From NCBI GenBank assembly GCA_964459265.1, contig CAYWKA010000001.1:46668-94372 (forward strand): DNA of 47,705 nt, read 5' to 3'. Source of the DNA: an uncultured Candidatus Saccharibacteria bacterium. Lineage in GTDB: Bacteria; Patescibacteriota; Minisyncoccia; Minisyncoccales; Paceibacteraceae. Shown here piece by piece: positions 1,147-20,493 of this stretch. Made by a program: the position numbers and the translations under genes. A model generated the notes under the pieces. The model did no database searches, was not told the origin of the DNA, and saw only the letters and a program-made list of their open reading frames with translations. Position 1 is the stretch's first letter; each line of letters begins with the position of its first letter.

Positions 1147-1677
1147 TCACACCTCCTTTTTTCTGCTCTTTATATAAGCTAGCTGTGGGTCTTTCCGAGT
1201 GATGCTGTAGTAATCAACAAGGCCATCCCTCATCTCTTTTCCTCTTTCATTATCGCTAGCTGCCAGTATCTGAACAGCGAACAAAGCAGCATTCCTCAAA
1301 CCAACCTTACCCACGCCAGTGCATCCTACGGGACAACCCGCTGGCGCTCTGGTTATTGAGAGGATGGCATCTAGGGCATCAGGGAAATCATCTGACGGGA
1401 GAGGAACACCAATAACTGGTGGAATATATTTTGCAATAGCAGCTATACTACCAGGCAGACGGGCAACCATTCCAGCACCGGCAATGAAAGTCCTTACCCC
1501 GTTTTGCAAAGCTTCCTCGCAATGGCCTTTAAGTATCCCGGGGTTCCGGTCAGCTGAAATAACTGATGCTTTATAGCTAACTCCGCATCGTTTTAAAACC
1601 TCAAACATTCCTGCTTCTTCTAGCAATGAACGATCGGTTTTGCTTCCTATTATAATATCCACTATTCGCTTACCCAT
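1147..1677 (-). CDS. purE: PurE-family (AIR carboxylase / N5-CAIR mutase fold) protein with substituted catalytic histidines
   Basis: 176 aa. It has GSKTD (for GSKSD), IAGAG...LPG...VIGVP and the C-terminal NAALFAVQILA motifs of PurE. However, SAHR is SADR and AAHLPG is VARLPG. SD AAGGAGG upstream. Confidence 0.75.
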   Translation of the reverse strand: MGKRIVDIIIGSKTDRSLLEEAGMFEVLKRCGVSYKASVISADRNPGILKGHCEEALQNGVRTFIAGAGMVARLPGSIAAIAKYIPPVIGVPLPSDDFPDALDAILSITRAPAGCPVGCTGVGKVGLRNAALFAVQILAASDNERGKEMRDGLVDYYSITRKDPQLAYIKSRKKEV

Positions 1678-1702
1678 GTTACATTGCCTCCTTTCTACTA
1701 CC

Positions 1703-3013
1703 TTAAATTCCGAAGCGGGCGAAAATTTGGGGAATGTTTTTGAGATAATGATCAGATCTCAGACAGTTATCGATTTCTTCATTGGTCAACAGCGCAGTAA
1801 TTCTGGAATCTGCTTTAAGCTTTGCTGCAAAATCTTCTCTGCGCTCCCAGGTCTCCTGTGCTACCTTCTGGACAAGAAGACGAGCGTCCTCCCTGCCCAT
1901 GCCTTTTTTCGTCAAAGCAAGCATCACGTTTTCGGAGAATATCACGCCCTTTGTCAGGACAAGATTTTCCAGCATCCGCTTCGTGTTCACCTTCAATCCT
2001 GTCATTATCTGGTTGAACAGACGAAGATTATAATAAGTCAGCATCAGCGAAAGCGGAATAGTAAACCTTTCATTAGCTGATTCATCCAATGACCTCTCGT
2101 GCCACTGAAGAGCTTGGTTTTCTCCGGCGACAATGGTAAATGCCCGGACTAATCGGGCCAAAGAGCAGACCCTCTCTGACTTATTTGGATTCCTTTTGTG
2201 GGGCATAGCCGATGACCCGCCGCCTTTACTGAATGGCTCTTCTATTTCGCCAATCTCCGTCTGTTGGAGGAGACGGATATTTGTTGCAAATCTTTCCAGA
2301 GAGTTGTTAATAGAAGCCAAAGCGGTAAGGAAATTATAATGCCGGTCGCGGCTAAGGATTTGGGTTGATATCTGGGCTGACTGAATGCCAAGTTTCTTAC
2401 AAACAATTACCTCAATCTTCGGATCAATGTTTGCGTAATTACCAACCGCTCCGGAAATCTTACCTACTGCCACTGCCAGCTCTTTATCTTCCAGATTTTC
2501 AAGTCCGCGCTGCAACTCGTCATACCAGTTTAGAATCTTAAGACCGAAGGTTATGGGTTCCGCCTGGACGCCATGGGTCCGACCGATCTCTCGAGCATAC
2601 TCGTACATCTCAGCTATACTTTCCAGTGTATTAATTAAATCCAGCGCCGCCGTTTTAATCAGTAGAAACGATTTTTTAATTTGGCGAGCCCGACTTGGCT
2701 CCCAAATATCATAGGAGGTAATACCGCCATGCCAAAAGGGTCTTACTTCGTCCGGCAAGGACTTTTTAACCACAGTGGAAAAGCTGACCATCTCCTGGTC
2801 CTTGGCAGCGTCCTCTTTGTCTATCTCCCGAACTGTAAACTTGGCGCTAGCCCGGGTCTTTGCCGCAATCCCTACAGGTATTAATTTAAGTTCTTCTTTT
2901 GCTTTTAAAATCGTTACCTCAACTAAAAGCCACGAGTTGTACCTTGCTTTTTTACCCCAGATTGCTCTCATTTCGGGTAAAATATACTTTTCGAGTTCCA
3001 ACATTTTTATCAC
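1703..3013 (-). CDS. purB: Adenylosuccinate lyase
   Basis: 436 aa with the fumarate-lyase signature GGGSSAMPHKRNP and a typical PurB N-terminus and length. Confidence 0.92.
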   Translation of the reverse strand: MIKMLELEKYILPEMRAIWGKKARYNSWLLVEVTILKAKEELKLIPVGIAAKTRASAKFTVREIDKEDAAKDQEMVSFSTVVKKSLPDEVRPFWHGGITSYDIWEPSRARQIKKSFLLIKTAALDLINTLESIAEMYEYAREIGRTHGVQAEPITFGLKILNWYDELQRGLENLEDKELAVAVGKISGAVGNYANIDPKIEVIVCKKLGIQSAQISTQILSRDRHYNFLTALASINNSLERFATNIRLLQQTEIGEIEEPFSKGGGSSAMPHKRNPNKSERVCSLARLVRAFTIVAGENQALQWHERSLDESANERFTIPLSLMLTYYNLRLFNQIMTGLKVNTKRMLENLVLTKGVIFSENVMLALTKKGMGREDARLLVQKVAQETWERREDFAAKLKADSRITALLTNEEIDNCLRSDHYLKNIPQIFARFGI

Positions 3014-3143
3014 CTCTTTCTGTTATTTTTTTATTTGGAAGGAACTGATTTACTCACTAAAGAGCTATAAAAAAGAGGGTTGTTCCTCCTTTAACCCTCC
3101 TTTTTGAAAATATCAAATTTTAAAAGTTTGTCAAAGTGTTATT

Positions 3144-3989
3144 TTAAGACAATCTGAATAATTTTTGGGCATTTTCTGTGGTAATCCTCGATATTTCTTC
3201 ATAGTTTATCTTTTTAATTTTAGCAATTTTCTCGGCTGCATATTTTAGACATAGAGGCTCATTCCTCTGATTTTCAAAAGGTGGTGGAGCTAAATATGGA
3301 CAATCGGTTTCTATTAAAATTTTATCTAAAGGTGTCTGTTTGATACTTTCTTCAAAATTTATTCCTTCAATATTCTTAAAGATTATTCCATTAAACCCAA
3401 TGTAAAATCCAAAATCTAAATATTTTTGAAGCTCTTCTAAGGTTCCGACGAAACCATGAGCTACAGCTTTTTCTGGCCTTATGTCGGAATTATTAGACAA
3501 AAAACCAGTTAAATCTTGATGGGCCATGCGGCAATGAAAGATGACCGGTAAATTTAATTCCTTAGCTAACCTTAACTGTTTTGAAAGTTCTTCTTTTTGT
3601 TTCTCTTTAAACAACTCTAATTTTCTTTTGGTTTTTGGTTTCCAATAGTAATCCAGGCCAGTTTCACCAATAGCTACCACCTTCTTGCTTCTTGCTAACT
3701 CTTTATATTTTTCATAATCAAAACTTTCTTCTCTGGAATTAAAAGCAATCTCTTCTTTGTCTATTTTCATTCTCACCAATCCGGCGTTCAAATGAAGGGG
3801 ATGTAAACCAATGGCAGCGTAAACCCCTTTTTCGTACTTCTCTGCAATCTCTACGGCTTTTTTACTGGTGTCATATTGGGTGCCAACGTTAATCACCCAG
3901 ATATCATTTTCCAAAGTTCTTTTAATAACTCCGTCAGCATCTGTTTTGTACGCGTTGAAATTAATATGGGCATGAGTATCAATTAACAT
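3144..3989 (-). CDS. tatD: TatD-family metal-dependent hydrolase/DNase
   Basis: 281 aa. Starts MLIDTHAHINF, with the HxH metal motif and later HCR...H and ETDCPYL motifs of TatD. Confidence 0.85.
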   Translation of the reverse strand: MLIDTHAHINFNAYKTDADGVIKRTLENDIWVINVGTQYDTSKKAVEIAEKYEKGVYAAIGLHPLHLNAGLVRMKIDKEEIAFNSREESFDYEKYKELARSKKVVAIGETGLDYYWKPKTKRKLELFKEKQKEELSKQLRLAKELNLPVIFHCRMAHQDLTGFLSNNSDIRPEKAVAHGFVGTLEELQKYLDFGFYIGFNGIIFKNIEGINFEESIKQTPLDKILIETDCPYLAPPPFENQRNEPLCLKYAAEKIAKIKKINYEEISRITTENAQKLFRLS

Positions 3990-5440
3990 CAGACTTTTGG
4001 AAAGATTGGTTTACTTTTTTGCGTTTTTAGTTGTCTAAAAATTTTCTCAGAAGTTTCTGGTAAAAAGGGCTGCAGCATCTCGGCGATGTTGCTAATGGCA
4101 AATAATAAATTGCTGATAACTTCTTTTTGATTTTTACTCTTTTCCCAGGGTCGTTCTTTTTCAATATATTTATCGCAAAAACTAATTAATTCCCAAACTG
4201 CAATCAGAACTTCATTAAACCTAAAGTTATCCAGCGCTTTTTTGTGTTTTCTCCAAGTTTTATCTGTTTGGATTTTGAATTTTGGATTTTGTCCGCCAAC
4301 TGGCAGATTAGATTTCGGAATTTGGAATTTAAAATTTTTCGCCATAGTTATTACTCTAGCCACCAAATTTCCCAGCCCCTTAGCTAAATCACTGTTATAT
4401 CTCGCCTCAAACTTTTGATAAGTAAAATCGCCGTCATTAGTCGGGGGAATTTCCCGCAAAAGAAAATATCTAACTGGATCTGTTCCGTATTTTTCAACCA
4501 ACTCGAGGGGCTCAACTATATTGCCTAACGATTTGGACATTTTTTGACCATCAACCGTAATAAACCCGTGGATAAACATCTTTTTTGGCAAAGATAATTT
4601 TAAGGAAAGCAGCATGCCTGGCCAAATTAGACAATGGAATTTCTGGATATCTTTACCAAGACAATGAACATCTGCCGGCCAATATTTTTTAAAACTCTTC
4701 TTGTTATCGGCATAACCAATGAGTGAAATGTAATTTATCAGGGCGTCTGCCCAACAGTAGATTGTTTGGTTATTATCATCGGGTACTGCAATCCCCCACT
4801 TTAAATCTTTTCTTGGTCGGGAAAAACTAATATCTTCTAATCCTTTTTTAGCAAAGTTTAACATTTCATTTTTGCGGGTCTGAGGAATTATTCTAATCTG
4901 GTTATCTCTAATAATCTTTTCGATTTCTTTTGAATATTTTGAAAGACGAAAGAAGTAATTTTCCTCCTCAATCGCTTGCGGAACCTTTTGATGGATTTTG
5001 CATTTACCATCAATCAGGTCTTTTTTCGTAATAAACGCTTCGCAACCAACACAATATAAACCTTTATATTTCTTTTTATAAATGTCGCCGTTTGCTTTTA
5101 GCTTCAACCAGACTTTCTTTACTGCCGGCCAATGCCGGGTTTTATCGGTGGTGCGGATAAAATCATTGTTTGATATGTTTAAAATTTTTGTTAGCTTTTT
5201 AAATTTGGCTGAAATTTCGTTGCTGAACACCTCTGGCGATTTCTTATTTTCTGCAGCTGCTTCGGCAACCTTCCGGCCATGTTCGTCTGTACCGGTTAAG
5301 AAAAAAACTTCTTCATTTAAGAGACGATGATGTCTCGTTAAAACGTCTGCCTGAATTAATTCTAAAGCAAACCCTATATGGGGCGGAGCGTTGGTATAAG
5401 CGATACTGGTTGTGATATAAAATTTCTTCTTCTTTTTCAT
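3989..5440 (-). CDS. metG: Methionyl-tRNA synthetase (short form, no C-terminal tRNA-binding appendix)
   Basis: 483 aa with KFYITTSIAYTNAPPHIGFALE (HIGH region), YWPADVHCLGKDI and KMSKSLGN. Contains the repeat-derived segment FKFQIPKSNLPVGGQNPKFKIQ. Confidence 0.92.
   Translation of the reverse strand: MKKKKKFYITTSIAYTNAPPHIGFALELIQADVLTRHHRLLNEEVFFLTGTDEHGRKVAEAAAENKKSPEVFSNEISAKFKKLTKILNISNNDFIRTTDKTRHWPAVKKVWLKLKANGDIYKKKYKGLYCVGCEAFITKKDLIDGKCKIHQKVPQAIEEENYFFRLSKYSKEIEKIIRDNQIRIIPQTRKNEMLNFAKKGLEDISFSRPRKDLKWGIAVPDDNNQTIYCWADALINYISLIGYADNKKSFKKYWPADVHCLGKDIQKFHCLIWPGMLLSLKLSLPKKMFIHGFITVDGQKMSKSLGNIVEPLELVEKYGTDPVRYFLLREIPPTNDGDFTYQKFEARYNSDLAKGLGNLVARVITMAKNFKFQIPKSNLPVGGQNPKFKIQTDKTWRKHKKALDNFRFNEVLIAVWELISFCDKYIEKERPWEKSKNQKEVISNLLFAISNIAEMLQPFLPETSEKIFRQLKTQKSKPIFPKV
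4269..4334. repeat. Palindrome-cored intragenic repeat, copy 1 (degenerate core TCCGCCAACTGGCAGA at 4292-4307)
   Basis: The core differs at 2 positions from the 16-nt palindrome TCCGCCAGCTGGCGGA. It is flanked by GGATTTTG/GGAATTTG-type arms and aligns over about 48 nt with copy 3 (41710-41756). It lies in frame in metG. Confidence 0.7.
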
Positions 5441-6120
5441 TGTTTCCCGACAATAACTACGAATTCTCCTTTTATTTTTCCGCCAGCTGGCGGATTTTCT
5501 ATTTCTTTAATTGCCTCTTCAATTTTCCCCCGATAAATTGTTTCAAACTTTTTGGTTAATTCCCGGCAAACCACAACTGATAATTTATTATTCATATTAC
5601 TTAACTCAGTTAAGGTTTTTATTATCCTATAAGGAGACTCGTAGAAAATTACCGGATATTTTGAATTAATAATTTCTTCGAAAAACTTTTTTCTTTTCTT
5701 TTTTACTGGTGGAAAACCTAAAAAAATAAATTTATCCATCGGTAAACCAGAAACGCTGACTGCCGCAGTTACAGCTGAAGGACCGGGGACAGGAATAATG
5801 GTTAAATCGTTGTAGCGTTCCATTGTTAAACTAATAAGTTTATTCCCCGGATCGGAAATTCCCGGAGTACCGGCATCAGACACCAAAGCTAAGTTTTTAC
5901 CTTTTCCTAACTGTTCTAAAATATAATCTATTTTTTTTAGTTTACTATGTTGGTGATAGCTAAGAGTCGAAGTTTTTATCTGATAACGGTCTAATAACTT
6001 TTTGGTTACTCTGGTATCTTCGCACAAAATTAAATCAACCTCCGATAAGATACGGAGGGCTCTTTTGGAAATGTCTTCCAAATTTCCAATAGGGGTAGCG
6101 ACAATATAAAGAATAGGCAT
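5437..6120 (-). CDS. rsmI: 16S rRNA (cytidine1402-2'-O)-methyltransferase
   Basis: 227 aa with LYIVATPIGNLEDIS...CEDTR at the N-terminus and the SDAGTPGISDPG tetrapyrrole-methylase-fold motif. 4-nt overlap with metG. Confidence 0.9.
   Translation of the reverse strand: MPILYIVATPIGNLEDISKRALRILSEVDLILCEDTRVTKKLLDRYQIKTSTLSYHQHSKLKKIDYILEQLGKGKNLALVSDAGTPGISDPGNKLISLTMERYNDLTIIPVPGPSAVTAAVSVSGLPMDKFIFLGFPPVKKKRKKFFEEIINSKYPVIFYESPYRIIKTLTELSNMNNKLSVVVCRELTKKFETIYRGKIEEAIKEIENPPAGGKIKGEFVVIVGKQ
5479..5494. repeat. Palindrome-cored intragenic repeat, copy 2 (perfect 16-nt palindrome TCCGCCAGCTGGCGGA)
   Basis: Exact 16-mer identical to 41724-41739. It is read on the minus strand as N-P-P-A-G-G in RsmI, with a GGATTTTC arm on one side. 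Confidence 0.75.
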
Positions 6121-9763: not shown

Positions 9764-11431
9764 TTACTGAACTACCCCCATATCAGAGTTGATTGTTGAG
9801 TCGTCTGGTAAAGTAGTATTAATGGCAGAAACGCTCATCTCAACAATTTCTTTGGTCCATTGGTCTTGGCCAGTAATTTTAGCTTGACTGATAATTTCCG
9901 GGGTCTGACCTTTCTGGCTTTCAGTTGGGGTGAATTTCACCTGGAAAGAGATATTAGGAGCTGGTGTTATTACGCCCTGACCGATTTCCATGTCACCAAT
10001 CTCCCAAACAATTTCTCGAGAATAAGAATCAAAAGCAAATTTATCGGCAGCCTCTTCCGGGAAAATTTTACCGGTTAATTGAACTTGTTTTGGTAGGGTA
10101 GCTTTAACTTTTACATTTTTTATTTCGTTATAATAATTCTTAACTTGCCACATTATAGTATAGGTGGTGTCGGCTCCAACAGTTGGTGGCAAAGAACCTG
10201 AATTTCCAAAGATTTCATCTTGGAAATACCCTTTTTGGCTTAAAACTAAATTTGAATTAATCTTGGTAGTAAATTCTTCTTTGACCTGACTGAGGAAAAC
10301 TTTATTTATTAAGACGGGATTCTTTAAAACTCCGAAGTCCTCTTTCAGATTAACCCAAAACTCTACCTTGGCTTCTTCCATGGGGGGGAGGTATTGAAGA
10401 TTGCGTATTTTTCGCCAGTCAAAAATAATAGAGTTATCTCCCGGCTCATAATCTCCCAGGTCAGATTTTATGGTTTGAAAATCAAAGGCCTCTCCTTCCA
10501 ATCTACTCACCAATAATAAATTAGTGAGGTCTTCTTCTCCCACGTTTTTAAAAAAGATTTCATAGTGCAGCCAGTCGCCGGGAGATGCCACATATTGAGG
10601 GTTACCATTGATCTGCTGCCAAATATAAAGAGAAGGTTTAATAATTTCAATTCCTTTAATGGCCTCTTTAAACAAGATGAATTCTCCGTCTTCCCAGCTG
10701 CCAAATTTCGCCCGAAAAAGCTTTTCTTCTCCGATCTCTCCAAAAAGTTTACCTGTTACCTCTACTCTTCCACCGCTAGCTTTATTCAAAAGTCCAATAT
10801 CCCACTCATTTTTCTCTAAGGCCTGGGGAGTAGAACTAATAAATTCAAAGTTTGAAGGATATTCAGCTATAACTCTTAGATTAGAGAGAGGGTAATCAAC
10901 ATTGGAAAAATAGTTTAATCTAAACTTAAATTCTTTTCCCGACTCGGCTCGAGAAGGTAAATCAAATTCAAAAGTTAGAGGAACCGATTTTATCTGGGTA
11001 GTAAAAGTAGTAGCTGATTCATAACGAGCTTTTAGATTTTTAGGCCGGTAACTTAACCAGGCCTTGGCTACCCTGACTTCTCCCTCCTTACCCAATAATC
11101 TTACTTTAAATTGAAAGGTCTTTTCCTCTCCAGGATAAATTGCTCCTCCTAAATCTGCCGAGCTTTTAGTAATCCTCTGGGAGGTCTCGCCAATGGGCAG
11201 GGAGTATTTTGGATATTCAAAAATGAGCTCGGGCTCTTCTAATCTGACATTGCCGTTATTTTTGTACTTTACGACATACTCAAACTCCTCAGCTAAATCC
11301 GATTCTTCTTGACCTAAAATTTCTAATTTAAGAATCTCTTTGGAATAGATATTTTCTTGCCAGCGCCAAAAACCAACTAAGCCGGCAATGACAGCTACAA
11401 TAATTAAACATGTGATAAATTTTCTTCGCAT
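9764..11431 (-). CDS. Hypothetical membrane-anchored extracytoplasmic protein (beta-rich repeats)
   Basis: 555 aa with a single N-terminal TM (ITCLIIVAVIAGLVGFW). The remainder is beta-strand-rich with recurring Y/W-x-V-x-N-x-G motifs that suggest Ig-like/DUF11-like modules. No catalytic motif recognised. Confidence 0.6.
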   Translation of the reverse strand: MRRKFITCLIIVAVIAGLVGFWRWQENIYSKEILKLEILGQEESDLAEEFEYVVKYKNNGNVRLEEPELIFEYPKYSLPIGETSQRITKSSADLGGAIYPGEEKTFQFKVRLLGKEGEVRVAKAWLSYRPKNLKARYESATTFTTQIKSVPLTFEFDLPSRAESGKEFKFRLNYFSNVDYPLSNLRVIAEYPSNFEFISSTPQALEKNEWDIGLLNKASGGRVEVTGKLFGEIGEEKLFRAKFGSWEDGEFILFKEAIKGIEIIKPSLYIWQQINGNPQYVASPGDWLHYEIFFKNVGEEDLTNLLLVSRLEGEAFDFQTIKSDLGDYEPGDNSIIFDWRKIRNLQYLPPMEEAKVEFWVNLKEDFGVLKNPVLINKVFLSQVKEEFTTKINSNLVLSQKGYFQDEIFGNSGSLPPTVGADTTYTIMWQVKNYYNEIKNVKVKATLPKQVQLTGKIFPEEAADKFAFDSYSREIVWEIGDMEIGQGVITPAPNISFQVKFTPTESQKGQTPEIISQAKITGQDQWTKEIVEMSVSAINTTLPDDSTINSDMGVVQ

Positions 11432-12177: not shown

Positions 12178-12477
12178 TTAATAAGGCTTAACTCCAGTAG
12201 TTCCTTTTAGAAACTTAATTTTTCTGTCAATTTTTAATCTTTCTTCTCTGCCTTTAGTTTTATATCGCTCCATTCTTAGCTCTCTCAGCTTCCTCTTAAC
12301 TTCTATCTCTGAAATGTGGCTTTGAAATCTTTTCTGAGGAAAAAGTTCTTTTTCCATCTTCATTCTTTCTTGTCGGGAATAAATTTTACCGCTACCAGGA
12401 ACACGAGGAGGAGCCTTCCTTAACGTTTCTCTAAACTCCAGCCTAGAGAATTGCTTTTTTTTATTAAAAATAGACAC
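12178..12477 (-). CDS. Small, highly basic hypothetical protein
   Basis: 99 aa, K/R-rich with a predicted helical character, 2 nt from recO. No recognisable family. Confidence 0.45.
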   Translation of the reverse strand: MSIFNKKKQFSRLEFRETLRKAPPRVPGSGKIYSRQERMKMEKELFPQKRFQSHISEIEVKRKLRELRMERYKTKGREERLKIDRKIKFLKGTTGVKPY

Positions 12478-12508
12478 TTTTTTGATTATTAATTATTATA
12501 TTCGGCCT

Positions 12509-13510
12509 TTAAAAAAGATTGCAAAGCTTAACAATAAATAAAACGTAAAGTAAAAGATACATAGCTCCTTCCCAAATATGGATTCTCCGAGAAATGCCAG
12601 AAAATATAAAAAGCAAGGTAGCGGTCACTAAGAAAGGAAGCCCAATCCCGAAGGTAAGTTCATCTACGGTTAACGGCTTGATTAAAGCCGGGATTCCAGC
12701 AATAATCAAAACATTAAAAACGTTGGAACCGAAAACATTCCCTAAAGCAATCTCGTATTTTTTCTTTAAAGCAGCTCGGACTGAGACCACTAATTCGGGC
12801 AAAGAAGTACCAATAGCAACGGCTGTAATTGCAATTAAAGAGGTGCTGATTTTAAAAAACTCAGAAATCTTTATTACCGATTCAATAGTATAATTAGCAC
12901 CGATGGCCAGACCGACCATTCCTAAAATTAAAAACGTAAATACTTTTAAATTAAGTTTGGAAGGCGTTTCCTTTAGACGCGCCATTTTCTCCACCTTCTT
13001 TTTTCTTCTTTCAATTCTTGAGGGTAATACCTCAACTATTTCTGGCGTTTCTTCCTCGTTTCTTTTTTGGAAAATTGTATATAAAAGATAAATCAAAAAA
13101 GCCAAAATTAATAAAATTCCTTCTCCCAAAACTATCTTTTTATCCCACATTACAAAAACAAAAAAGAAGGTAGCTGCACCCAAAAGAGGAGCATCTAAAT
13201 CAATTAGGCTTCTTTTGACAACGAGACGGCCGGCAGCTACTGCCGAAATCCCGACAATCAAAAGAATGTTAGCGATATTGGAACCCAAAGCATTAGCCAC
13301 AACGATTTCGGTTGCTCCTTTAAAAACGGCGGCCAGCGAAGAAGCTAATTCCGGAAAAGAAGTACCGACAGCAACAATTGTTACTCCGATAATAAAAGGG
13401 GAAATTTTAAAGGCCAGACCGATTTTTTCGGCTGACTCCACAAACCAATCAGCTGATTTCACCAACAGGGCTAAGCTGAAAATAAAAATTAAAATCCAAA
13501 GTATGGGCAT
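12509..13510 (-). CDS. Ca2+/cation antiporter (CaCA, YrbG-like sodium/calcium exchanger)
   Basis: 333 aa with two alpha-repeat signatures, GTSFPELASS and GTSLPELVVS, separated by a charged loop, and about 10 TM segments. Confidence 0.85.
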   Translation of the reverse strand: MPILWILIFIFSLALLVKSADWFVESAEKIGLAFKISPFIIGVTIVAVGTSFPELASSLAAVFKGATEIVVANALGSNIANILLIVGISAVAAGRLVVKRSLIDLDAPLLGAATFFFVFVMWDKKIVLGEGILLILAFLIYLLYTIFQKRNEEETPEIVEVLPSRIERRKKKVEKMARLKETPSKLNLKVFTFLILGMVGLAIGANYTIESVIKISEFFKISTSLIAITAVAIGTSLPELVVSVRAALKKKYEIALGNVFGSNVFNVLIIAGIPALIKPLTVDELTFGIGLPFLVTATLLFIFSGISRRIHIWEGAMYLLLYVLFIVKLCNLF

Positions 13511-13514
13511 AGGT

Positions 13515-16500
13515 TTAAATTCTTCTAAGTCCTATCCATAATTTTTGTTGCTCAACTTTTAATTCTCTCTCAATATTAAATACCTGTTTTGGCTTTTCTC
13601 CCAAACGAAAATCCTCGGCTTTAATTTCTTTTAAAATGGAATTTTTATTTTTGGTTAGGATCTTATTTAGTTCGTTGGTCCCCGACCCCCTCACTAAAAT
13701 TCTGTGGTGAGGTTTTAATTGGGCCTTCTTCCTCATTTCTTGAACTTGCCGAATCACTTCTCTAACAATTCCTTCTTCTTTTAGCTCTGGAGTGATTTTA
13801 GTGTCTAATTTTAAAGCTTTACCAAAAGTAATTTTCTTGACGTTAACTTCCTCTTTAATTAACTCTAACAACTCCTTTTCTTTTCTCAAGCCATAATTTG
13901 TAATTCTTAATTCATTTAAGGGTTGACGTACTTTTATTCCGACCCTTGCCCGTTCGGCCAGCGCTGTGGCAACAGTTCTTCTTACCTCTTCCATCTTTTT
14001 CTCTAATTTATCATCTTTATTTTTTTTATTGGCTGCCGGCCAATCCTCTAAATGGCAGCTTCTTTTCTTCCCCAACCCTTGATAGACTTCTTCACTTAAG
14101 AATGGAATAAAAGGAGCAGTTAGTTTACTTAGAGTTAAAAGGACAAAGCTTAAAGTCTCTGAAGCCTCTTTTAATTCTTTTTTACTGGCAGGTTTTTGAA
14201 ATCTCTTTCTGGAACGCCGGATATACCATAAAGAAAGATCTTCAACTACAAAATTTTCAAGTGCTCTAGCTGCGCCAGTTACGTCAAACCTATTCAATCT
14301 TTGAGTGACTTCCCGAATAAGATTGCCTAACTTGGAAATAACCCATTTATCAAGGATGTGTTTGGATTTTGGTTCGCCAACTGACGAATTGATTTTGAAT
14401 TTCTCAGCATATGTTTTTAAAAAAACAACGCTGTTCCAGAAAGTTAAGATGAATTTTTTCAGAGCTTGATCTACCTCTTTTTCAGAAAAAAGTTTAACGT
14501 CTCCTGGTTGATTAACAGTATAAAAATACCAGCGAGTAGCGTCAGCACCGTATTTTTCGACAATCTTCCAGGGGTCAACCACGTTTCCTTTTGATTTGGA
14601 CATTTTCTCTCCTTTTTCATCTAAAACATGACCTACCGAAATAACATTTTTATAAGCCGACCCCTTCTTTAATAAAGTAGAGATGGCCAAAAGAGTATAA
14701 AACCACCCCCGGGTTTGATCAACGGCTTCAGAAATATAATCTGCCGGGAACTGTTCTTTTTGTAATTTTCGATTCTCAAAAGGATAATGATATTGAGCAA
14801 AAGGCATGGAACCAGAGTCAAACCAACAATCAATCACTTCGGGAGTTCTCTCTATTAGTTCGTCACATTTTGGACAATAAAATTTAACTTTATCAATGTA
14901 AGGACGGTGGAAATCCAAATCAAATTTTTCATTATAGGGAAGATTTTTAAGGTCTATTTTTCTTAGCTCCCCAGTTTCTATCTCTTGTTTTTTAATAATA
15001 AGGTCAACAAATTTATTCAAATCATAGCCATAAACTATTTTCTCAAGTAAAGTTAAGGGCCGCTGATGGCTAACAATTAAAATATTTTCCCTTTGGTATT
15101 TTTTATCTATTTCTTTTATAAATTCGTACATTCTTTTTTCTATATCAGTATAATTTTCTCCTTTTGGGGGAGCGATTTGAAATTTTCTCAAATAATATTC
15201 TGAAGGTGAAAGCCTTCTTTCTTTATCCCAAAATCTTCCAACTTCCTTTACGGGTTTTCCATTTAAAATACCGACATTAACTTCTCTTAGCCTTTTGTCA
15301 AGTTTTGGTTTCAATTTTAATTCTCTTCCGACAATTTTGGCAGTTTGTTTGGTTCTCAATAAATCGGAAGAGAAAATTAAACTAATTTTTTCCTTTTTTA
15401 ATTTTTCAGCTACTCCTTTAATCTGTTTTTTTCCTCTTTCTGTTAGGGGTAAATTAATTTTTTCTGGCCAACAGGAAGCAATGTCTTTGATATTTCTTAT
15501 AGAGTGACCGTGCCTTAAAACAAAGTATCTATTTTTGCTGAATTTTTGATTGATTAAATCTCCTCTTGAGCCAATAACTTCTCTCTTCCCACATTTTTTG
15601 CATTGCCAAATAGGTAAAGGGGTCCCCCAGTATCTTTCTCTGGAGAAAGCCCAATCTTTTATTTCTTTCAACCATTCTCCAAATCTTCCCTTTTTTAAAT
15701 AAGCGGGTAGCCAATTTATTTTTTGATTGTTAGCAATTAAATCTTTTTTAACCTTCTGCATTCTTATAAACCAGCTTTGCTTGGCGTAGTAAAGCAAAGG
15801 AGATGAGCACCGCCAACAAAAAGGATAGTCGTGTTCGTGGAATTCTTCTTTAAAAAGGAGATTGCGTTTTTCCAAATCTTTAACGATTAAAGGGTCGGCC
15901 TCTTTTACCAACATCCCTGCCCAATTTTTTACTTCCTTTTTGAACTTTCCTTCTTCATTAACATTCAACAGAACTGGCAAATCGTTTTCTTTTCCTACTG
16001 TCATATCTTCCTCGCCAAAAGCCGGAGCAATATGGACTAGACCAGTTCCCTCTTCTAAGGAAACGAAGTCGCCTGAGATAATATACCAGGCCTTTTTGTC
16101 CGGTTTAATGAATTTGTATAGGGGTTCGTATTCCAAACCTAATAAATTTTTTCCCTTGAACTCCTGAATGATTTCACCTTTAGCTCCTAAGGTCTCCATT
16201 CTCTCTTTAGCTAAAACCAAATATTCCTTATCAACTTTTATTTTTACGTAACTAACATTTGGATTAATAGCCACGGCCACATTGCCCGGCAATGTCCAAG
16301 GAGTAGTAGTCCAAACCAATAAATAAGTTTTAGATTTTGAGCTTGGGATTTTGAGCTTAACATATATTGCTGGTTCTTTAATCTTTTTGTACCCTAAGGC
16401 AACTTCGTGGCTAGATAAACTGGTTCCGCATCTAGGACAATAAGGAACTACCTTGTAATCTTGGTATAAAAGTTCTTTCTTATATAACTCTTTGATTATC

Positions 16501-16964
16501 CACCAAATTGTCTCAATGTAATCCGATTGGTAAGTAATGTAAGGATTTTTTAGGTTCAACCAAAATCCAATTCTTTCGGTCAGCTTTTCCCAGTCTTTTT
16601 GATATTGCCAAACAGATTTCTTACATCTTTTATTGAACTTAGCTATACCGTATTTTTCAATATCTTTTTTGCTCTTTAGCCCCAATTTTTTCTCAATTTC
16701 CAATTCCACTGGCAAACCGTGAGTGTCCCACCCCGCCTTTCTTAAAACCTTGAATCCCTGCATGGTTTTATAACGACAAATAATATCTTTATAAATCCGG
16801 CTTAGAACATGGTGAATCCCTGGTTTAGCATTTGCGGTTGGCGGCCCTTCGTAGAAAACGAAAGTTGGCGCTTTTTTTCGCTGTTCAATACTTTTTTCAA
16901 AAGCCCGGATTTGTCGCCAAAACTTTAATATTTTCTTTTCTTTTTGAGAAAAATCTAAATTCAT
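13515..16964 (-). CDS. ileS: Isoleucyl-tRNA synthetase carrying a nested histidine-phosphatase domain
   Basis: 1149 aa with the PPTANAKPGIHHV (HIGH) region, the WTTTPWTLPGN editing domain, KMSKSKGN and a C-terminal anticodon-binding region. About 200 extra residues lie between PIWQCKKCGK and FYCPKCDE. Confidence 0.93.
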   Translation of the reverse strand: MNLDFSQKEKKILKFWRQIRAFEKSIEQRKKAPTFVFYEGPPTANAKPGIHHVLSRIYKDIICRYKTMQGFKVLRKAGWDTHGLPVELEIEKKLGLKSKKDIEKYGIAKFNKRCKKSVWQYQKDWEKLTERIGFWLNLKNPYITYQSDYIETIWWIIKELYKKELLYQDYKVVPYCPRCGTSLSSHEVALGYKKIKEPAIYVKLKIPSSKSKTYLLVWTTTPWTLPGNVAVAINPNVSYVKIKVDKEYLVLAKERMETLGAKGEIIQEFKGKNLLGLEYEPLYKFIKPDKKAWYIISGDFVSLEEGTGLVHIAPAFGEEDMTVGKENDLPVLLNVNEEGKFKKEVKNWAGMLVKEADPLIVKDLEKRNLLFKEEFHEHDYPFCWRCSSPLLYYAKQSWFIRMQKVKKDLIANNQKINWLPAYLKKGRFGEWLKEIKDWAFSRERYWGTPLPIWQCKKCGKREVIGSRGDLINQKFSKNRYFVLRHGHSIRNIKDIASCWPEKINLPLTERGKKQIKGVAEKLKKEKISLIFSSDLLRTKQTAKIVGRELKLKPKLDKRLREVNVGILNGKPVKEVGRFWDKERRLSPSEYYLRKFQIAPPKGENYTDIEKRMYEFIKEIDKKYQRENILIVSHQRPLTLLEKIVYGYDLNKFVDLIIKKQEIETGELRKIDLKNLPYNEKFDLDFHRPYIDKVKFYCPKCDELIERTPEVIDCWFDSGSMPFAQYHYPFENRKLQKEQFPADYISEAVDQTRGWFYTLLAISTLLKKGSAYKNVISVGHVLDEKGEKMSKSKGNVVDPWKIVEKYGADATRWYFYTVNQPGDVKLFSEKEVDQALKKFILTFWNSVVFLKTYAEKFKINSSVGEPKSKHILDKWVISKLGNLIREVTQRLNRFDVTGAARALENFVVEDLSLWYIRRSRKRFQKPASKKELKEASETLSFVLLTLSKLTAPFIPFLSEEVYQGLGKKRSCHLEDWPAANKKNKDDKLEKKMEEVRRTVATALAERARVGIKVRQPLNELRITNYGLRKEKELLELIKEEVNVKKITFGKALKLDTKITPELKEEGIVREVIRQVQEMRKKAQLKPHHRILVRGSGTNELNKILTKNKNSILKEIKAEDFRLGEKPKQVFNIERELKVEQQKLWIGLRRI
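14361..14403. repeat. Palindrome-cored intragenic repeat, copy 4 (degenerate core TTCGCCAACTGACGAA at 14373-14388)
   Basis: TTTGGATTTTGG + core + TTGATTTTGAATTT aligns with copies 1 and 3. It is read as KFKINSSVGEPKSK inside IleRS. Confidence 0.55.
14925..15536 (-). other. Histidine phosphatase (phosphoglycerate-mutase superfamily) domain inserted in IleRS (about residues 477-680)
   Basis: RYFVLRHGHSIRN (RHG nucleophile motif), LTERG, SSDLLRTKQTA, LREVNVGILNG and ILIVSHQRPL occur in the canonical order for this superfamily. Confidence 0.75.
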
Positions 16965-16965
16965 C

Positions 16966-18510
16966 TTACATCTTTTCTGGAACAGTTATTCCCATTAAAT
17001 CTAAAGTGTTTTTAAATACTGTTTTAGTGGCTAAAACTAAAGCTAAACGCGCTCCAGCCAAATCTTTATTTCCCGAAATCACCCGGCAATCTCGATAAAA
17101 TTGATGGAAAATAGTAGCTAAATCTGTAGCGTATTGAGGTAATCTTTGTGCCTGATAATCTTTAGCTGTGTCTTCTACTACCTCTGGCAACTTAATCAAC
17201 TGCTTAATCAGTTTTAGTTCTGAAGGATGTTTTAATAATTTAAGCTGCTGGGGATCGACTTTAATGGACTGAGCCTTTTTTAGGATGCTGCAAATCCGAG
17301 CGTGGGCATACTGTATATAATACACCGGATTTTTCTCTGACTGCTGTTTAGCCAAAGTTATGTCAATCTCCATATGAGTATCCAGAGATTTCTGTAAATA
17401 AAAAAATCTGGTTGCATCTAATCCAATCTCATTTACCAAATCTTCCAAGGTAATAATTTTACCTTTTCTTTTAGAAAGTTTTTCTTTACCCCTTAAGGAT
17501 ACTAATTGCAATATTAAAATATCTAAATCGCCCCGGAAATCCAGCATTTTGGCAGCTGCTTTTATTTTGGAAACGTGAGCCTGATGATCTGCTCCCCAAA
17601 TGTCAATTACTTTATTGAAGCCTCTGTCAAATTTATCTTTGTGATAAGCGATATCTGACAACAGATAAGTTGGCTCGCCGGTCTCCCGGACTATAACCCA
17701 ATCTCTTTCTGCTCCGTATTCTGAAGTTTTTAACCACCAGGCCCCGTCTTTTTCATAAACTAAACTTTTCTTTTTTAACCATCCAAAAATTTTTTTTACC
17801 CCGTTCTTCCGGTAAATATCGTTCTCTTCTGAAACCCATCTATCAAATTTTATTTTCAGTTTATTTTCTAGAAAATGTTTTATATCTTTTTGTATTTCCT
17901 GAGCTAACCAATAGCCAGCTTCTTCCTCTTTATTAAATTTTTTGAGTTCTTTCTCTTTGGCTTTTAATTTTCCCCTCAAATAAGGAGTCAGATAAGTCGT
18001 ACCTTTACCTAAAGCCGTTTTACCCAGTTCTTTTATTTGACCGCTGTTTTTGGCATCGTTAATAAAATATTCCCGAGTAACTTGATAACCAGCTTTTTCT
18101 AAAATATTAGCTATAACGTCTCCGACAAAAGTGTTACGGCCATTGCCGATATGAAGAGGCCCGGTAGGATTGGCGGAAATCGACTCAATGTTTATTTTCT
18201 GTGCCTTCTCCGTTCTTAACTGACCGTATTTCTCTTTCCATTTTAAAATTTCTTTAACCTGTTTTTGTAAAAAATCATCTGATAGAAAAAAATTAATAAA
18301 CCCTGGCTTTTTGACTTCAATTTTCTCCAATAGATCAGATTTTAATTTCTTAGCTATCCCGGCTGGATTTTTCTTAAGCTGAAGGGCAATATTGGTTGAG
18401 TAATCGCCATGGGAGGCGTCTTCCGGATGTTCAACTTTAATCTTTTCTGGCTTTTCTCCGGTTGCCTTTTGAATTAATTTTATTATCTCCTGCCTGACCA
18501 TATTCTTCAT
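16966..18510 (-). CDS. argS: Arginyl-tRNA synthetase
   Basis: 514 aa with SANPTGPLHIGNGRN (HIGH region), the Arg-tRNA-synthetase N-domain, and a C-terminal DALR anticodon-binding end finishing in ...GITVPEKM. Confidence 0.92.
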   Translation of the reverse strand: MKNMVRQEIIKLIQKATGEKPEKIKVEHPEDASHGDYSTNIALQLKKNPAGIAKKLKSDLLEKIEVKKPGFINFFLSDDFLQKQVKEILKWKEKYGQLRTEKAQKINIESISANPTGPLHIGNGRNTFVGDVIANILEKAGYQVTREYFINDAKNSGQIKELGKTALGKGTTYLTPYLRGKLKAKEKELKKFNKEEEAGYWLAQEIQKDIKHFLENKLKIKFDRWVSEENDIYRKNGVKKIFGWLKKKSLVYEKDGAWWLKTSEYGAERDWVIVRETGEPTYLLSDIAYHKDKFDRGFNKVIDIWGADHQAHVSKIKAAAKMLDFRGDLDILILQLVSLRGKEKLSKRKGKIITLEDLVNEIGLDATRFFYLQKSLDTHMEIDITLAKQQSEKNPVYYIQYAHARICSILKKAQSIKVDPQQLKLLKHPSELKLIKQLIKLPEVVEDTAKDYQAQRLPQYATDLATIFHQFYRDCRVISGNKDLAGARLALVLATKTVFKNTLDLMGITVPEKM

Positions 18511-18560: not shown

Positions 18561-19007
18561 GTGAGGATATTGGCTGAAAATAAAAAAGCTTATTATAACT
18601 ATGAAATCCTGGAGAAGTTTGAGGCAGGGATTTCTTTGATTGGTCAGGAGGTAAAATCAATTAAATCAGGTAAAGTGAGCTTGGCTGGTTCTTATGTAGT
18701 GTTAAAAGAAGAAGAGGCGTACTTAATTGGCGCCACTATTCCTCCTTATCAACCCAAAAATGCTCCAGCTGATTATAACCCTGAGCGTTCTCGAAAACTT
18801 CTTTTAAAAAAAACTGAAATTAAAAGTTTAATCGGTAAAGCAAAACAAAAAGGCTTGACTTTAGTACCCTTAAAATTATATACTAAAAACGGCAAAATCA
18901 AACTGGAATTCGCCGTAGTCAAAGGAAAAAGAGAAATTGATAAAAGAGAGCAGATTAAAAAAAGAGAGTTTGAGCGCCAAAAAGAAAGATTGCTTAAACA
19001 ATATTAA
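18561..19007 (+). CDS. smpB: SsrA-binding protein
   Basis: 148 aa with a GTG start preceded by AAGG. Motifs: AENKKAYYNYEILEKFEAGISLIGQEVKSIK and a basic C-terminal tail. It ends 2 nt before the tmRNA. Confidence 0.9.
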   Translation: MRILAENKKAYYNYEILEKFEAGISLIGQEVKSIKSGKVSLAGSYVVLKEEEAYLIGATIPPYQPKNAPADYNPERSRKLLLKKTEIKSLIGKAKQKGLTLVPLKLYTKNGKIKLEFAVVKGKREIDKREQIKKREFERQKERLLKQY

Positions 19008-19008
19008 T

Positions 19009-19357
19009 GGGGATGGAAGGCCTTGATGAGGAGTCGACTGAAACGGGCAAGCGAAGTTTGTTGGTTCTTCTTAAAAACTAGCAAAAAGAATAAGCGCCAA
19101 CTTATTTCAAAAACAACCTGCTTTAGCATACGCTTAAGCAGCATCTTCTTCACTAACTCTCGATAGGTGAAGCAGGTGCCATAACATCGAGATAGATAGC
19201 TCTTTTAAGCCTGAAAGAGTTATTAAATCTTTTGTAGGCTAAAAGCAGAGAGATTTTCGCCTAATTTCTACTTTCTGCTTTTAAATAAATTGGGCTAAGC
19301 TTGTAGAACTACTTTGGAAAAACTCCCCAGATCCGAGTTCAACTCTCGGCATCTCCA
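19009..19357 (+). ncRNA. ssrA: tmRNA (ssrA)
   Basis: The 5' GGGGATG pairs with the 3' CATCTCC, including the G3:U wobble (Ala identity), followed by discriminator A. T-arm CCGAG-TTCAACT-CTCGG. An internal tag frame (GCA at 19081 or GCC at 19096) ends ...QKQPALAYA-TAA at 19135-19137. The terminal CCA is not fully encoded (A-CAA). Confidence 0.85.
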
Positions 19358-19377
19358 CAAAAATAATTATTAAACTT

Positions 19378-19887
19378 TTGATTAAAAAACCTCTTATAAA
19401 CAATCAAATAAGGGCTCCGCAGGTTAGAGTAGTAGATGAAAACGGGAAGCAATTGGGTGTTATGAGTTCACAAGAGGCGCTCCAATTGGCTCGGGAGCGC
19501 AATTTAGATTTAATTCAAGTAACCGAGAAAGTAGAACCGCCAGTTTGTAAGCTGGGAGATTATGGAAAATATCAATATCTGCAGGAAAAAAAAGAAAAAG
19601 CCGCCCGCAAACACAAAGGCGGGGAGCTTAAGGGAATCAGATTAACTTTTAATATCTCTCAGCATGATTTGGAAACTAAAGTCCGTCAAGCCGAAAAGTT
19701 CTTAAAAAAGGGAGATAGGATAAGAGTGGAATTACCGTTAAGAGGAAGAGAGAAAGCTCTGGGAAACTTTGCTAAAGAAAAAATGAATAAATTCTTAGAA
19801 ATTTTACAAAGTACGGTTCCGGTTAAAATTGAAAGGGAATTAAAAAGAGAGATGAGAGGATTGACAATGATTATCTCTAAGGCCTAA
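19378..19887 (+). CDS. infC: Translation initiation factor IF-3
   Basis: 169 aa with INNQIRAPQVRVVDENGKQLGV and the C-domain KGIRLTFNISQHDLETK. There is no ATG; the start is TTG (19378) or the adjacent ATT (19381). Confidence 0.9.
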   Translation: MIKKPLINNQIRAPQVRVVDENGKQLGVMSSQEALQLARERNLDLIQVTEKVEPPVCKLGDYGKYQYLQEKKEKAARKHKGGELKGIRLTFNISQHDLETKVRQAEKFLKKGDRIRVELPLRGREKALGNFAKEKMNKFLEILQSTVPVKIERELKREMRGLTMIISKA

Positions 19888-19907
19888 TATATTTAACGAG
19901 AAAAAGT

Positions 19908-20099
19908 ATGAAAACTCGCAAATCGCTCACTAAACGTTTTAAGATTACCAGGTCCGGTAAGGTTTTAAGAAGACCAACAGGACAAGACCATCTTCGGGCT
20001 AAAAAATCTGGCAAAAAAATAAGACAAAGCCGAAAATGGGTTGAAGTTTCCAAACCCGAAGCTAAAAAAATCAAGAAATTACTACCTAAGAGTCGATGA
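19908..20099 (+). CDS. rpmI: 50S ribosomal protein L35
   Basis: 63 aa, MKTRKSLTKRFKITRSGKVLRR..., lying between infC and rplT. Confidence 0.9.
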   Translation: MKTRKSLTKRFKITRSGKVLRRPTGQDHLRAKKSGKKIRQSRKWVEVSKPEAKKIKKLLPKSR

Positions 20100-20145
20100 A
20101 TCTAAAGATTCATCTCCATCTGCGCCCACTATGTGGGCTTGATAT

Positions 20146-20493
20146 ATGAGTAGAGTAAAACGAGGAAAAATTGCCCACAAAAGAAGGAAGCGTTTATTAA
20201 AACAGACTAAAGGTTTCCGTTGGGGAAGAAAAGCAAAATATAGATTAGCTAAAGATGCTTTGTATCATGCCTGGGAATACGCTTACCGAGACAGAAGAAC
20301 AAAAAAAAGAGAGTTCAGAAAACTCTGGCAAACCCAGATTTCGGCTGCCTGCCGCCAGGCCGGGATTTCTTACAGCCGATTTATTGCTGGTCTCAAGAAA
20401 AACAAAATTGAGCTGGATAGAAAAATCTTATCTGCTTTGGCCCGGAACCATCCTGAAATTCTTAAAAAAATCATTGAAAAAGCAAAAGAGTAG
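20146..20493 (+). CDS. rplT: 50S ribosomal protein L20
   Basis: 115 aa, MSRVKRGKIAHKRRKRLLKQTKGFRWGRK..., the last gene of the infC-rpmI-rplT operon. Confidence 0.92.
   Translation: MSRVKRGKIAHKRRKRLLKQTKGFRWGRKAKYRLAKDALYHAWEYAYRDRRTKKREFRKLWQTQISAACRQAGISYSRFIAGLKKNKIELDRKILSALARNHPEILKKIIEKAKE

Follow-up and report, generated by a model that had tools for sequence, protein, structure and literature searches.

A histidine phosphatase nested in isoleucyl-tRNA synthetase, or encoded beside it, in Parcubacteria

Results

The ileS gene carries an additional domain in the zinc knuckle of CP3

The stretch of DNA analysed here (the window) covers 47,705 nucleotides of contig CAYWKA010000001.1, assigned to an uncultured Candidatus Saccharibacteria bacterium, and contains on its minus strand a complete ileS gene (positions 13515..16964) coding for a type-2 isoleucyl-tRNA synthetase (IleRS) of 1149 aa in which a phosphatase is nested. 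The gene was identified from its open reading frame (ORF), from the NCBIfam ileS model TIGR00392, whose score of 919.6 bits (cut-off 621.4) places the product among the isoleucyl-tRNA synthetases, and from Pfam. The order of the Pfam families along the protein is tRNA-synt_1 (aa 11-478), His_Phos_1 (aa 481-658), the remainder of tRNA-synt_1, Anticodon_1 and DUF5915, the latter corresponding to C-terminal domains typical of type-2 IleRS. The Thermus thermophilus (Tth) enzyme, 1ILE, matched the protein with an E-value of 1.4e-263 in two stretches that bracket the additional domain. The N-terminal part (aa 1-475, positions 15540..16964, minus strand) aligns with residues 9-476 of Tth IleRS and comprises the first Rossmann half, the CP core, the CP1 editing domain, CP2 and the start of CP3. 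The C-terminal part (aa 686-1149, positions 13515..14909, minus strand) corresponds to Tth residues 485-821 and to the Anticodon_1 and DUF5915 matches; it contains the second Rossmann half, with the KMSKS motif at aa 787-791, the anticodon-binding domain and the type-2 C-terminal domains. When 77 insert-bearing homologues were compared, K787-M-S-K-S791, W218-T-T-T-P-W-T224 of the editing domain, H311 and D320 were invariant, and H51 and H52 of the HIGH region were conserved in at least 90% of the sequences. By its motifs, the host IleRS also looks functional. The MupA and MupB exception models gave only 860 and 844 bits for a cut-off of 1900, meaning that the enzyme is not of the mupirocin-resistance type.

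The zinc knuckle of CP3 is split by the insert. Its first CxxC (C455 and C458, positions 15591..15602, minus strand) aligns with Tth C461/C464 and its second one consists of C697 and C700 (positions 14865..14876, minus strand), all four cysteines being invariant in the 77 nested homologues. The alignment to 1ILE stops at Tth residue 476 and restarts at residue 485, between C461/C464 and C502/C504. The loop running from EVIGS to HRP is 20 aa long in Thermus and 13-22 aa long in 28 IleRS without insert, and reaches 211-221 aa in the 44 with insert. The zinc motif Cys461/464...Cys502/504 belongs to CP3, a peripheral and topologically variable subdomain (PMC7191050).

An earlier note on this DNA, made from its letters alone, had described an insertion of about 200 aa between the two CxxC halves, where ordinary IleRS has a short linker, and the comparison above bears this out. 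All the motifs that it quoted are present: PIWQCKKCGK (aa 450-459), VLRHGHS (482-488), LTERG (507-511), SSDLLRTKQTA (532-542), LREVNVGILNG (559-569), VSHQ (631-634), HRPYID (686-691) and FYCPKCDE (695-702). The limits it had proposed, 14925..15536, turned out to be essentially exact, since end-to-end homology to free-standing proteins places the domain at 14946..15539 (minus strand, aa 476-673, ~198 aa). The domain is followed by a C-terminal linker, NLPYNEKFDLDF (aa 674-685, positions 14910..14945, minus strand), which is specific to the nested form: it is conserved among nested proteins and absent from the IleRS of free-form lineages (see below) and of Thermus. In the AlphaFold2 (AF2) model of the full-length protein (mean predicted local distance difference test score, pLDDT, 80.9; predicted template-modelling score, pTM, 0.69), the insert and its linkers reached pLDDT values of 90-97.

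The insert is a branch-1 histidine phosphatase

The insert had been attributed to the phosphoglycerate-mutase-type histidine phosphatases, and the search with Pfam His_Phos_1 (PF00300) gave a strong match at aa 481-658, with an E-value of 8.5e-35 and 120.6 bits for a gathering cut-off of 21.7. The domain aligns to PhoE (1EBB/1H2E) and to PspA (4IJ5), with R484-H485, R537, E561 and H633 falling on the catalytic positions of PhoE. All of these residues are encoded on the minus strand: R484 and H485 (positions 15510..15515), the phosphate-binding Arg and nucleophilic His of the RHG motif, align with the RHG of PhoE 1EBB; R537 (15354..15356) is the second phosphate-binding Arg; E561 (15282..15284), the proton donor, aligns with the Glu of the PhoE sequence LREIHLG; and H633 (15066..15068) is the second catalytic His. 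We surveyed these positions in 240 homologues, 123 nested and 117 free, with identities down to about 40%. The claim that the catalytic residues are retained held throughout: R537 and H633 were invariant (240/240), position 561 was E or D in 240/240, and R484 and H485 were conserved in every nested sequence (123/123) and in each free one that covers that column (114/114). The isolated domain was modelled by AF2 with a pLDDT of 96.9, and Foldseek matched it with a probability of 1.00 and template-modelling (TM) scores of 0.76-0.81 to 4IJ6, 1H2E, 1EBB, 4QIH and 6S2Q, which are of the PhoE, PspA, GpgP and CobC kinds. The insert is a branch-1 histidine phosphatase, PhoE/PspA-like, with the phosphoglycerate-mutase-like alpha/beta fold. 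We hold it for almost certain that the nested domain is real, conserved and, as predicted from its residues, catalytically competent.

A conserved feature is proper to the IleRS-linked family, namely a WPE(K) motif after RHG. The domain is also strongly basic, with a net charge of +17 in the nested and +23 in the free form, an isoelectric point (pI) of about 9.9 and a per-residue charge twice that of the IleRS host core; among the 42 proteins of the window, just L20, SmpB and one other exceed it in basicity. So basic a domain favours a polyanionic partner.

More precise identities were considered and rejected on the NCBIfam cut-offs, which were missed for the dPGM/GpmB enzymes (dPGM_arch, 88.5 vs 225; GpmB, 62.3 vs 261; PRK01112, 45.1 vs 320) and for CobC and PspA (TIGR03162, 91.2 vs 162.9; PRK15004, 66.6 vs 250; PspA, 77.5 vs 350). 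Immediately downstream of the acid Glu and of the second His, the residues also differ from what we take to be the dPGM motif pattern. PADLOC returned no family for the window protein or for its free homologue P0002, and a link to defence systems was rejected.

The nested architecture is widespread in Parcubacteria

The earlier note had called for a survey of related IleRS. The 120 IleRS clusters that matched best, drawn from NCBI, JGI, ENA and Logan, with lengths of 1116-1220 aa and identities of 62-78%, all contain PF00300, a recurrence that chance could not produce. A pattern scan of the GTDB species representatives gave 272 genomes with a relative, and 80 loci were fetched; the positive genomes that carry a lineage name are Nealson-, Staskawicz-, Wildermuth- and Azambacteria, Paceibacter normanii, Minisyncoccales and Parcubacteria. 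The phosphatase was nested at exactly the same site as in the window, and with homologous linkers, in 44 of these 80 loci, which are from Parcubacteria/Paceibacteria. Among the 36 others, 21 had a free phosphatase gene abutting ileS, 13 had it upstream with a gap and 2 were of another kind or uninformative. The nested architecture is thus widespread in Parcubacteria and not unique to the genome of the window, and the public records annotate such proteins just as IleRS or as 'class I tRNA ligase family protein'.

These data bear directly on whether the feature is real. From the GC content of the insert, which is below that of its flanks, one might suspect a chimeric assembly, a mobile insertion such as an intein, or a relic in decay, but this dip is better explained by an exchange of the domain cassette (see below), and over 120 protein clusters and 44 species-representative genomes, originating from many studies, show this in-frame arrangement. 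Such recurrence across independent assemblies disposes of the assembly artefact that the earlier note had envisaged. Pfam detected no Hint, intein or homing-endonuclease domain, the C-terminal junction (...RKIDLK/NLPY) is devoid of the His-Asn pair, and the invariance of the catalytic residues speaks against a relic. We regard an unreal feature as extremely improbable.

In related lineages a free phosphatase gene occupies the position between argS and ileS

The nearest relatives of the insert include stand-alone proteins of ~198 aa, among which P0002 is 76% identical over 196 aa, and the insert corresponds to the entire free-standing protein, from about residue 3 to its last residue. The genes for these free phosphatases sit between argS and ileS, upstream of ileS. 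In the window, argS (positions 16966..18510, minus strand; identified by Pfam and by synteny with loci L001-L004) abuts the start of ileS, and the slot that holds the phosphatase gene in the free-form relatives is empty. No second His_Phos copy was found in the whole window; locally, a nested and a free copy exclude each other.

We measured the spacing on 22 directly abutting pairs (loci L001-L084). The distance from the free gene to ileS had a median of 1 nt and a range of -10 to +38 nt, and 7 of the 22 pairs overlapped; spacing of this kind marks co-translated partners. In the 13 gapped loci the free gene lies on the same strand as ileS, with 128-1906 nt of accessory genes between them; the intervening ORFs are mixed and apparently unrelated, and gave no evident functional clue.

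The phosphatase was inserted in IleRS at several sites

An exhaustive profile search at E <= 1e-30 gave 254 representative proteins (50%-identity clusters), and the architectures were classified from the domain-bearing proteins of at least 230 aa, about 209 in number. A single CP3 insertion was found in 189 of them. Three further sites were seen in more distant IleRS. One lies just past the knuckle's second half, at about window aa 695-709, another past the HYPFEN motif (about aa 727-740; L082/L083, P0275 and P0339, the last with this site only), and another ahead of the anticodon-binding domain (about aa 854-868; P0258, P0345 and P0358). P0301, P0284 and P0295 are also among the distant IleRS with the phosphatase at other internal sites. 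The CP3 insertion is missing in P0339, P0345 and P0358, and RHA replaces RHG in some copies among the distant IleRS. The insertions at these additional sites (1b, 2 and 3) are independent events.

Several proteins contain two domains. The 1361-aa IleRS encoded at L082:2166-6251 and at L083, both from metagenome-assembled genomes of Ca. Paceibacterota, carries a first domain in the CP3 knuckle (aa 491-680) and a second one after HYPFEN (aa 748-940); the two share 39% identity, and RHG and the remaining catalytic motifs are retained in each. Free tandem doubles with two phosphatase copies (~360-415 aa) also occur (P0270, P0327, P0377, P0383 and P0352). No end-to-end fusion, either N- or C-terminal, was present among the about 209 classified proteins; adjacent genes would fuse most readily by losing a stop codon.

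Two other proteins are unusual. P0313 (1030 aa) is IleRS-like and devoid of HIGH, GWDTHG and the entire CP1 editing domain, and its nested phosphatase has RAG and not RHG; judging from these motifs it may be a paralogue in which both activities are lost. In P0241, a protein of 1161 aa that is probably truncated, 3-4 His_Phos repeats follow an N-terminus that resembles a class I synthetase but is divergent, with 22% identity to the window IleRS.

Evolution of the domain and of its host

When the IleRS core was used for a neighbour-joining tree with Thermus as the root, the free-form lineages were basal and 43 of the 44 nested IleRS formed one clade, the bootstrap for this split being just 65-68%. 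The nested IleRS of L065 clustered with the free-form L016 and L017 with 100% bootstrap, and the tree of the domain was incongruent with that of its host. The free gene is probably the ancestral state, with the reservation that the method used may attract the long branches of the divergent free-lineage IleRS to the outgroup, and the CP3 insertion probably took place early, in one large clade.

Comparison of the free-form relatives (for example L001) with the window gave 42-49% identity for IleRS, 60-67% for ArgS and RecO and 76-78% for the phosphatase, and the IleRS of these lineages (L001:5308-8151, L004:6603-9494; 42-51% identical to that of the window) are unusually divergent. In some free-lineage IleRS the CP3 knuckle no longer has its first CxxC (L001 reads ECPNGH). 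The closest relative of the window, L019 (Ca. Paceibacter normanii), shares 81% identity for ArgS and 79% for IleRS but just 58% for the domain. The free domain of L001 is 78% identical to that of the window, despite values of 62% for ArgS and 48% for IleRS. The GC content of the insert is 0.300 compared with about 0.36 in its flanks, and at third codon positions 0.227 compared with 0.31-0.36. This mismatch of identities between L001 and L019, together with the low third-position GC, suggests that the domain cassette was replaced by recombination. We claim, from the trees and these sequence comparisons, that more than one transition, or an exchange of the cassette between lineages and architectures, appears to have occurred.

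Could the domain be a mere passenger, an unrelated housekeeping neighbour of ileS that fused into permissive surface loops and remained uncoupled, perhaps with some help from co-expression, the genome being streamlined? Evolution is faster in the domain than in the IleRS core, the cassette appears to have been exchanged between lineages, CP3 is peripheral and structurally variable (PMC7191050), and the argS-ileS-recO region is syntenic throughout these lineages, all of which would suit a passenger. However, in-frame internal insertion is mechanistically demanding and yet was found at no fewer than 4 sites (at least 4), the easy end-to-end fusion is never seen, the free genes are spaced as tightly as those for subunits of co-translated complexes, and the linkage persists over IleRS lineages just 40-50% identical. 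A passenger fusion is thus unlikely. Altogether, these data show that two intact enzymes are held together by selection in several physical formats.

Other genes around ileS

Between ileS and recO, at positions 12178-13510, the window contains a Na+/Ca2+ exchanger gene (12509-13510) and a 99-aa ORF without family match (12178-12477); L001 and L004 have at this position a single unrelated small ORF of 127-142 aa. Downstream of recO, positions 9764-11431 code for a 555-aa protein with DUF11 and DUF7619 repeats, conserved at this place in most related loci (42-83% identity), after which comes a class II synthetase gene. A conserved translation cluster lies on the plus strand at 18561-20493 and is syntenic with L001: it consists of SmpB (18561-19007), tmRNA (19009-19358, tag ANLFQKQPALAYA), IF3 (19378-19887) and L20 (20146-20493). 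In L004, positions 1313-5853, directly upstream of the free phosphatase gene, contain a bAvd accessory gene and a reverse transcriptase gene (RVT_1) followed by a gene for a 1015-aa protein, a set that resembles a diversity-generating retroelement.

Discussion

The internal insertions recurred without any end-to-end fusion, the free genes are tightly spaced with ileS, nested and free copies exclude each other locally, and the catalytic residues are invariant. From these observations we infer that the phosphatase cooperates with IleRS, and we consider it probable that it is functionally coupled to the synthetase and is not a passenger. It would then be an active phosphomonoesterase in physical partnership with IleRS, covalent in the window protein and probably within a co-translated complex where the gene is free. 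Taken as a whole, the data are, on balance, best explained by an active phosphatase nested in IleRS or partnered with it, which may act on a phosphorylated RNA end. This kind of substrate is deemed the likeliest because, in its basicity, the domain is roughly on a par with the genome's RNA-binding proteins.

As for the substrate, the end of a tRNA ranks first among the roles we considered, but naming it specifically is tentative. Of the roles suggested in the earlier note, that on a phosphorylated tRNA end is favoured, if indirectly and to a limited degree, by the strong positive charge of the domain. Ahead of charging, the domain would rid tRNA(Ile) of a phosphate or pyrophosphate that blocks its 3' (or 2') position, so that an end-healing step would be built into the synthetase. 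The toxSAS toxins pyrophosphorylate the 3'-CCA ends of tRNAs and thereby block aminoacylation, some of them being tRNA-specific (PMC11559606; 10.1101/2021.04.30.441581), and histidine phosphatases can take phosphate off nucleic-acid ends (PMC2737285). That the 3'-(pyro)phosphates added by toxSAS-type toxins or left by ribonucleases are stripped off tRNA(Ile) on the synthetase, as a repair preceding charging, is a more doubtful proposal.

Several points weigh against an RNA end as substrate and against coupling itself. A high pI is common in low-GC, Lys-rich proteomes. Adjacency alone is weak evidence of coupling in a region, argS-ileS-recO, that is syntenic overall across the lineages. The proposal does not explain why IleRS alone, and not all synthetases or the CCA-adding enzyme, needs end healing. 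Finally, the closest relatives in sequence and in structure are all small-molecule phosphatases, namely PspA, PhoE, GpgP, CobC and a riboflavin-pathway phosphatase.

This last point also leads to another explanation, in which a small-molecule phosphatase coupled to IleRS hydrolyses a diffusible phosphomonoester (the AMP product, pyrophosphate or a nucleotide), or a metabolite-sensing insert tunes IleRS. Tethering at alternative sites and in multiple copies fits an effect on local concentration better than it fits a precise geometry, and the PhoE-type enzymes are known to be broad in specificity (Rigden 2008, cited in PMC2737285). On the other hand, every synthetase makes AMP and pyrophosphate and yet the domain is only on IleRS in our sample, such substrates do not require a very basic charge, and no NCBIfam equivalog threshold of a named small-molecule phosphatase was reached. 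We regard this role as rather unlikely.

The position of the insertions raises the case of a protein phosphatase that protects its own host by clearing an inhibitory phosphorylation of IleRS, for example on the KMSKS loop, by analogy with the HipA/HipT-type kinases that act on GltX and TrpS. The insertion sites, some before KMSKS and some after it, all fall within the C-terminal half of the catalytic domain, and a role in cis is compatible with several points of attachment. The histidine phosphatase superfamily does include protein phosphatases, such as PGAM5, Sts-1 and SixA. However, the neighbourhoods of the window gene and of the loci of its relatives contain no kinase partner, the fold neighbours found by Foldseek are other than protein phosphatases, and we know of no HipA/HipT-type kinase that targets IleRS. 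Self-dephosphorylation is thus very unlikely, and the action of a coupled phosphatase on an RNA end remains the explanation that we prefer.

Whatever its substrate, the phosphatase has been kept next to IleRS over a class-level radiation of ultrasmall bacteria (candidate phyla radiation), a pattern that points to an unrecognised step in the handling of tRNA(Ile), of IleRS or of its nucleotides. As a catalytic module added to a class Ia synthetase, the insert is specific to certain lineages, and its partnership with IleRS is, as far as we found, undescribed: as the earlier note had supposed for a fusion of an aminoacyl-tRNA synthetase with a phosphatase, no description of an IleRS-phosphatase fusion or partnership was found in open-access papers and bioRxiv. 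A 2026 preprint on the domain architectures of about 96,000 IleRS makes no mention of a phosphatase or of these phyla (10.64898/2026.02.03.703510), and a 2026 survey of domain insertions reports, for synthetases, editing domains only (PMC13114784).

Among known systems, PhoE/YhfR, PspA, GpgP and CobC resemble the insert in fold (TM about 0.8, 22-26% identity), in size (~200 aa) and in their RHG, Arg, Glu and His residues, whereas the IleRS-linked family differs from them by WPE(K) after RHG, a pI near 10 and an obligatory linkage to ileS. A curated IleRS family with an added enzymatic domain does exist, NF040702 (ileS_w_GNAT), on which no literature was found in open-access papers and bioRxiv; its domain is of another type, an N-acetyltransferase, and the window protein scores 323 bits for a cut-off of 1999. 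Fusions of a histidine-phosphatase domain to another enzyme are represented by the RNase H/CobC-like acid phosphatase (NF005567, Rv2228c type), in which one of the partners acts on nucleic acid, and by PFK-2/FBPase-2, but these are end-to-end fusions with no link to aminoacylation, and the NF005567 score of the window protein is 81.7 vs 326.

The proposed mechanism has its closest parallels in dedicated hydrolases that restore blocked tRNA 3' ends. In E. coli, the HD domain of the CCA-adding enzyme is a phosphatase/cyclic phosphodiesterase fused to a tRNA-handling enzyme. Small alarmone hydrolases reverse the toxSAS pyrophosphorylation of CCA ends and so restore the tRNA (PMC11559606, PMC11782079). 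Both are HD-domain enzymes, unlike the histidine phosphatase insert, and the likeness is to the proposed mechanism only.

An architectural parallel is the CP1 editing domain of IleRS, ValRS and LeuRS, which is also a hydrolytic domain nested in the class Ia Rossmann fold. CP1 acts on the synthetase's own tRNA substrate, meaning that nested catalytic modules in such enzymes can be functionally coupled (PMC13114784). Unlike CP1, an ancient and universal domain with a different fold, a different site and a known substrate, mischarged tRNA, the phosphatase is restricted to certain lineages, is inserted in CP3 and occurs as a free gene as well. In aminoacyl-tRNA synthetases, the nested catalytic modules known so far serve amino-acid proofreading, to which a phosphatase is chemically unrelated. 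If it proves true, repair before charging would be a new class of synthetase-embedded quality control or immunity, distinct from amino-acid editing, and the paired nested and free forms constitute a natural experiment on domain insertion and fission.

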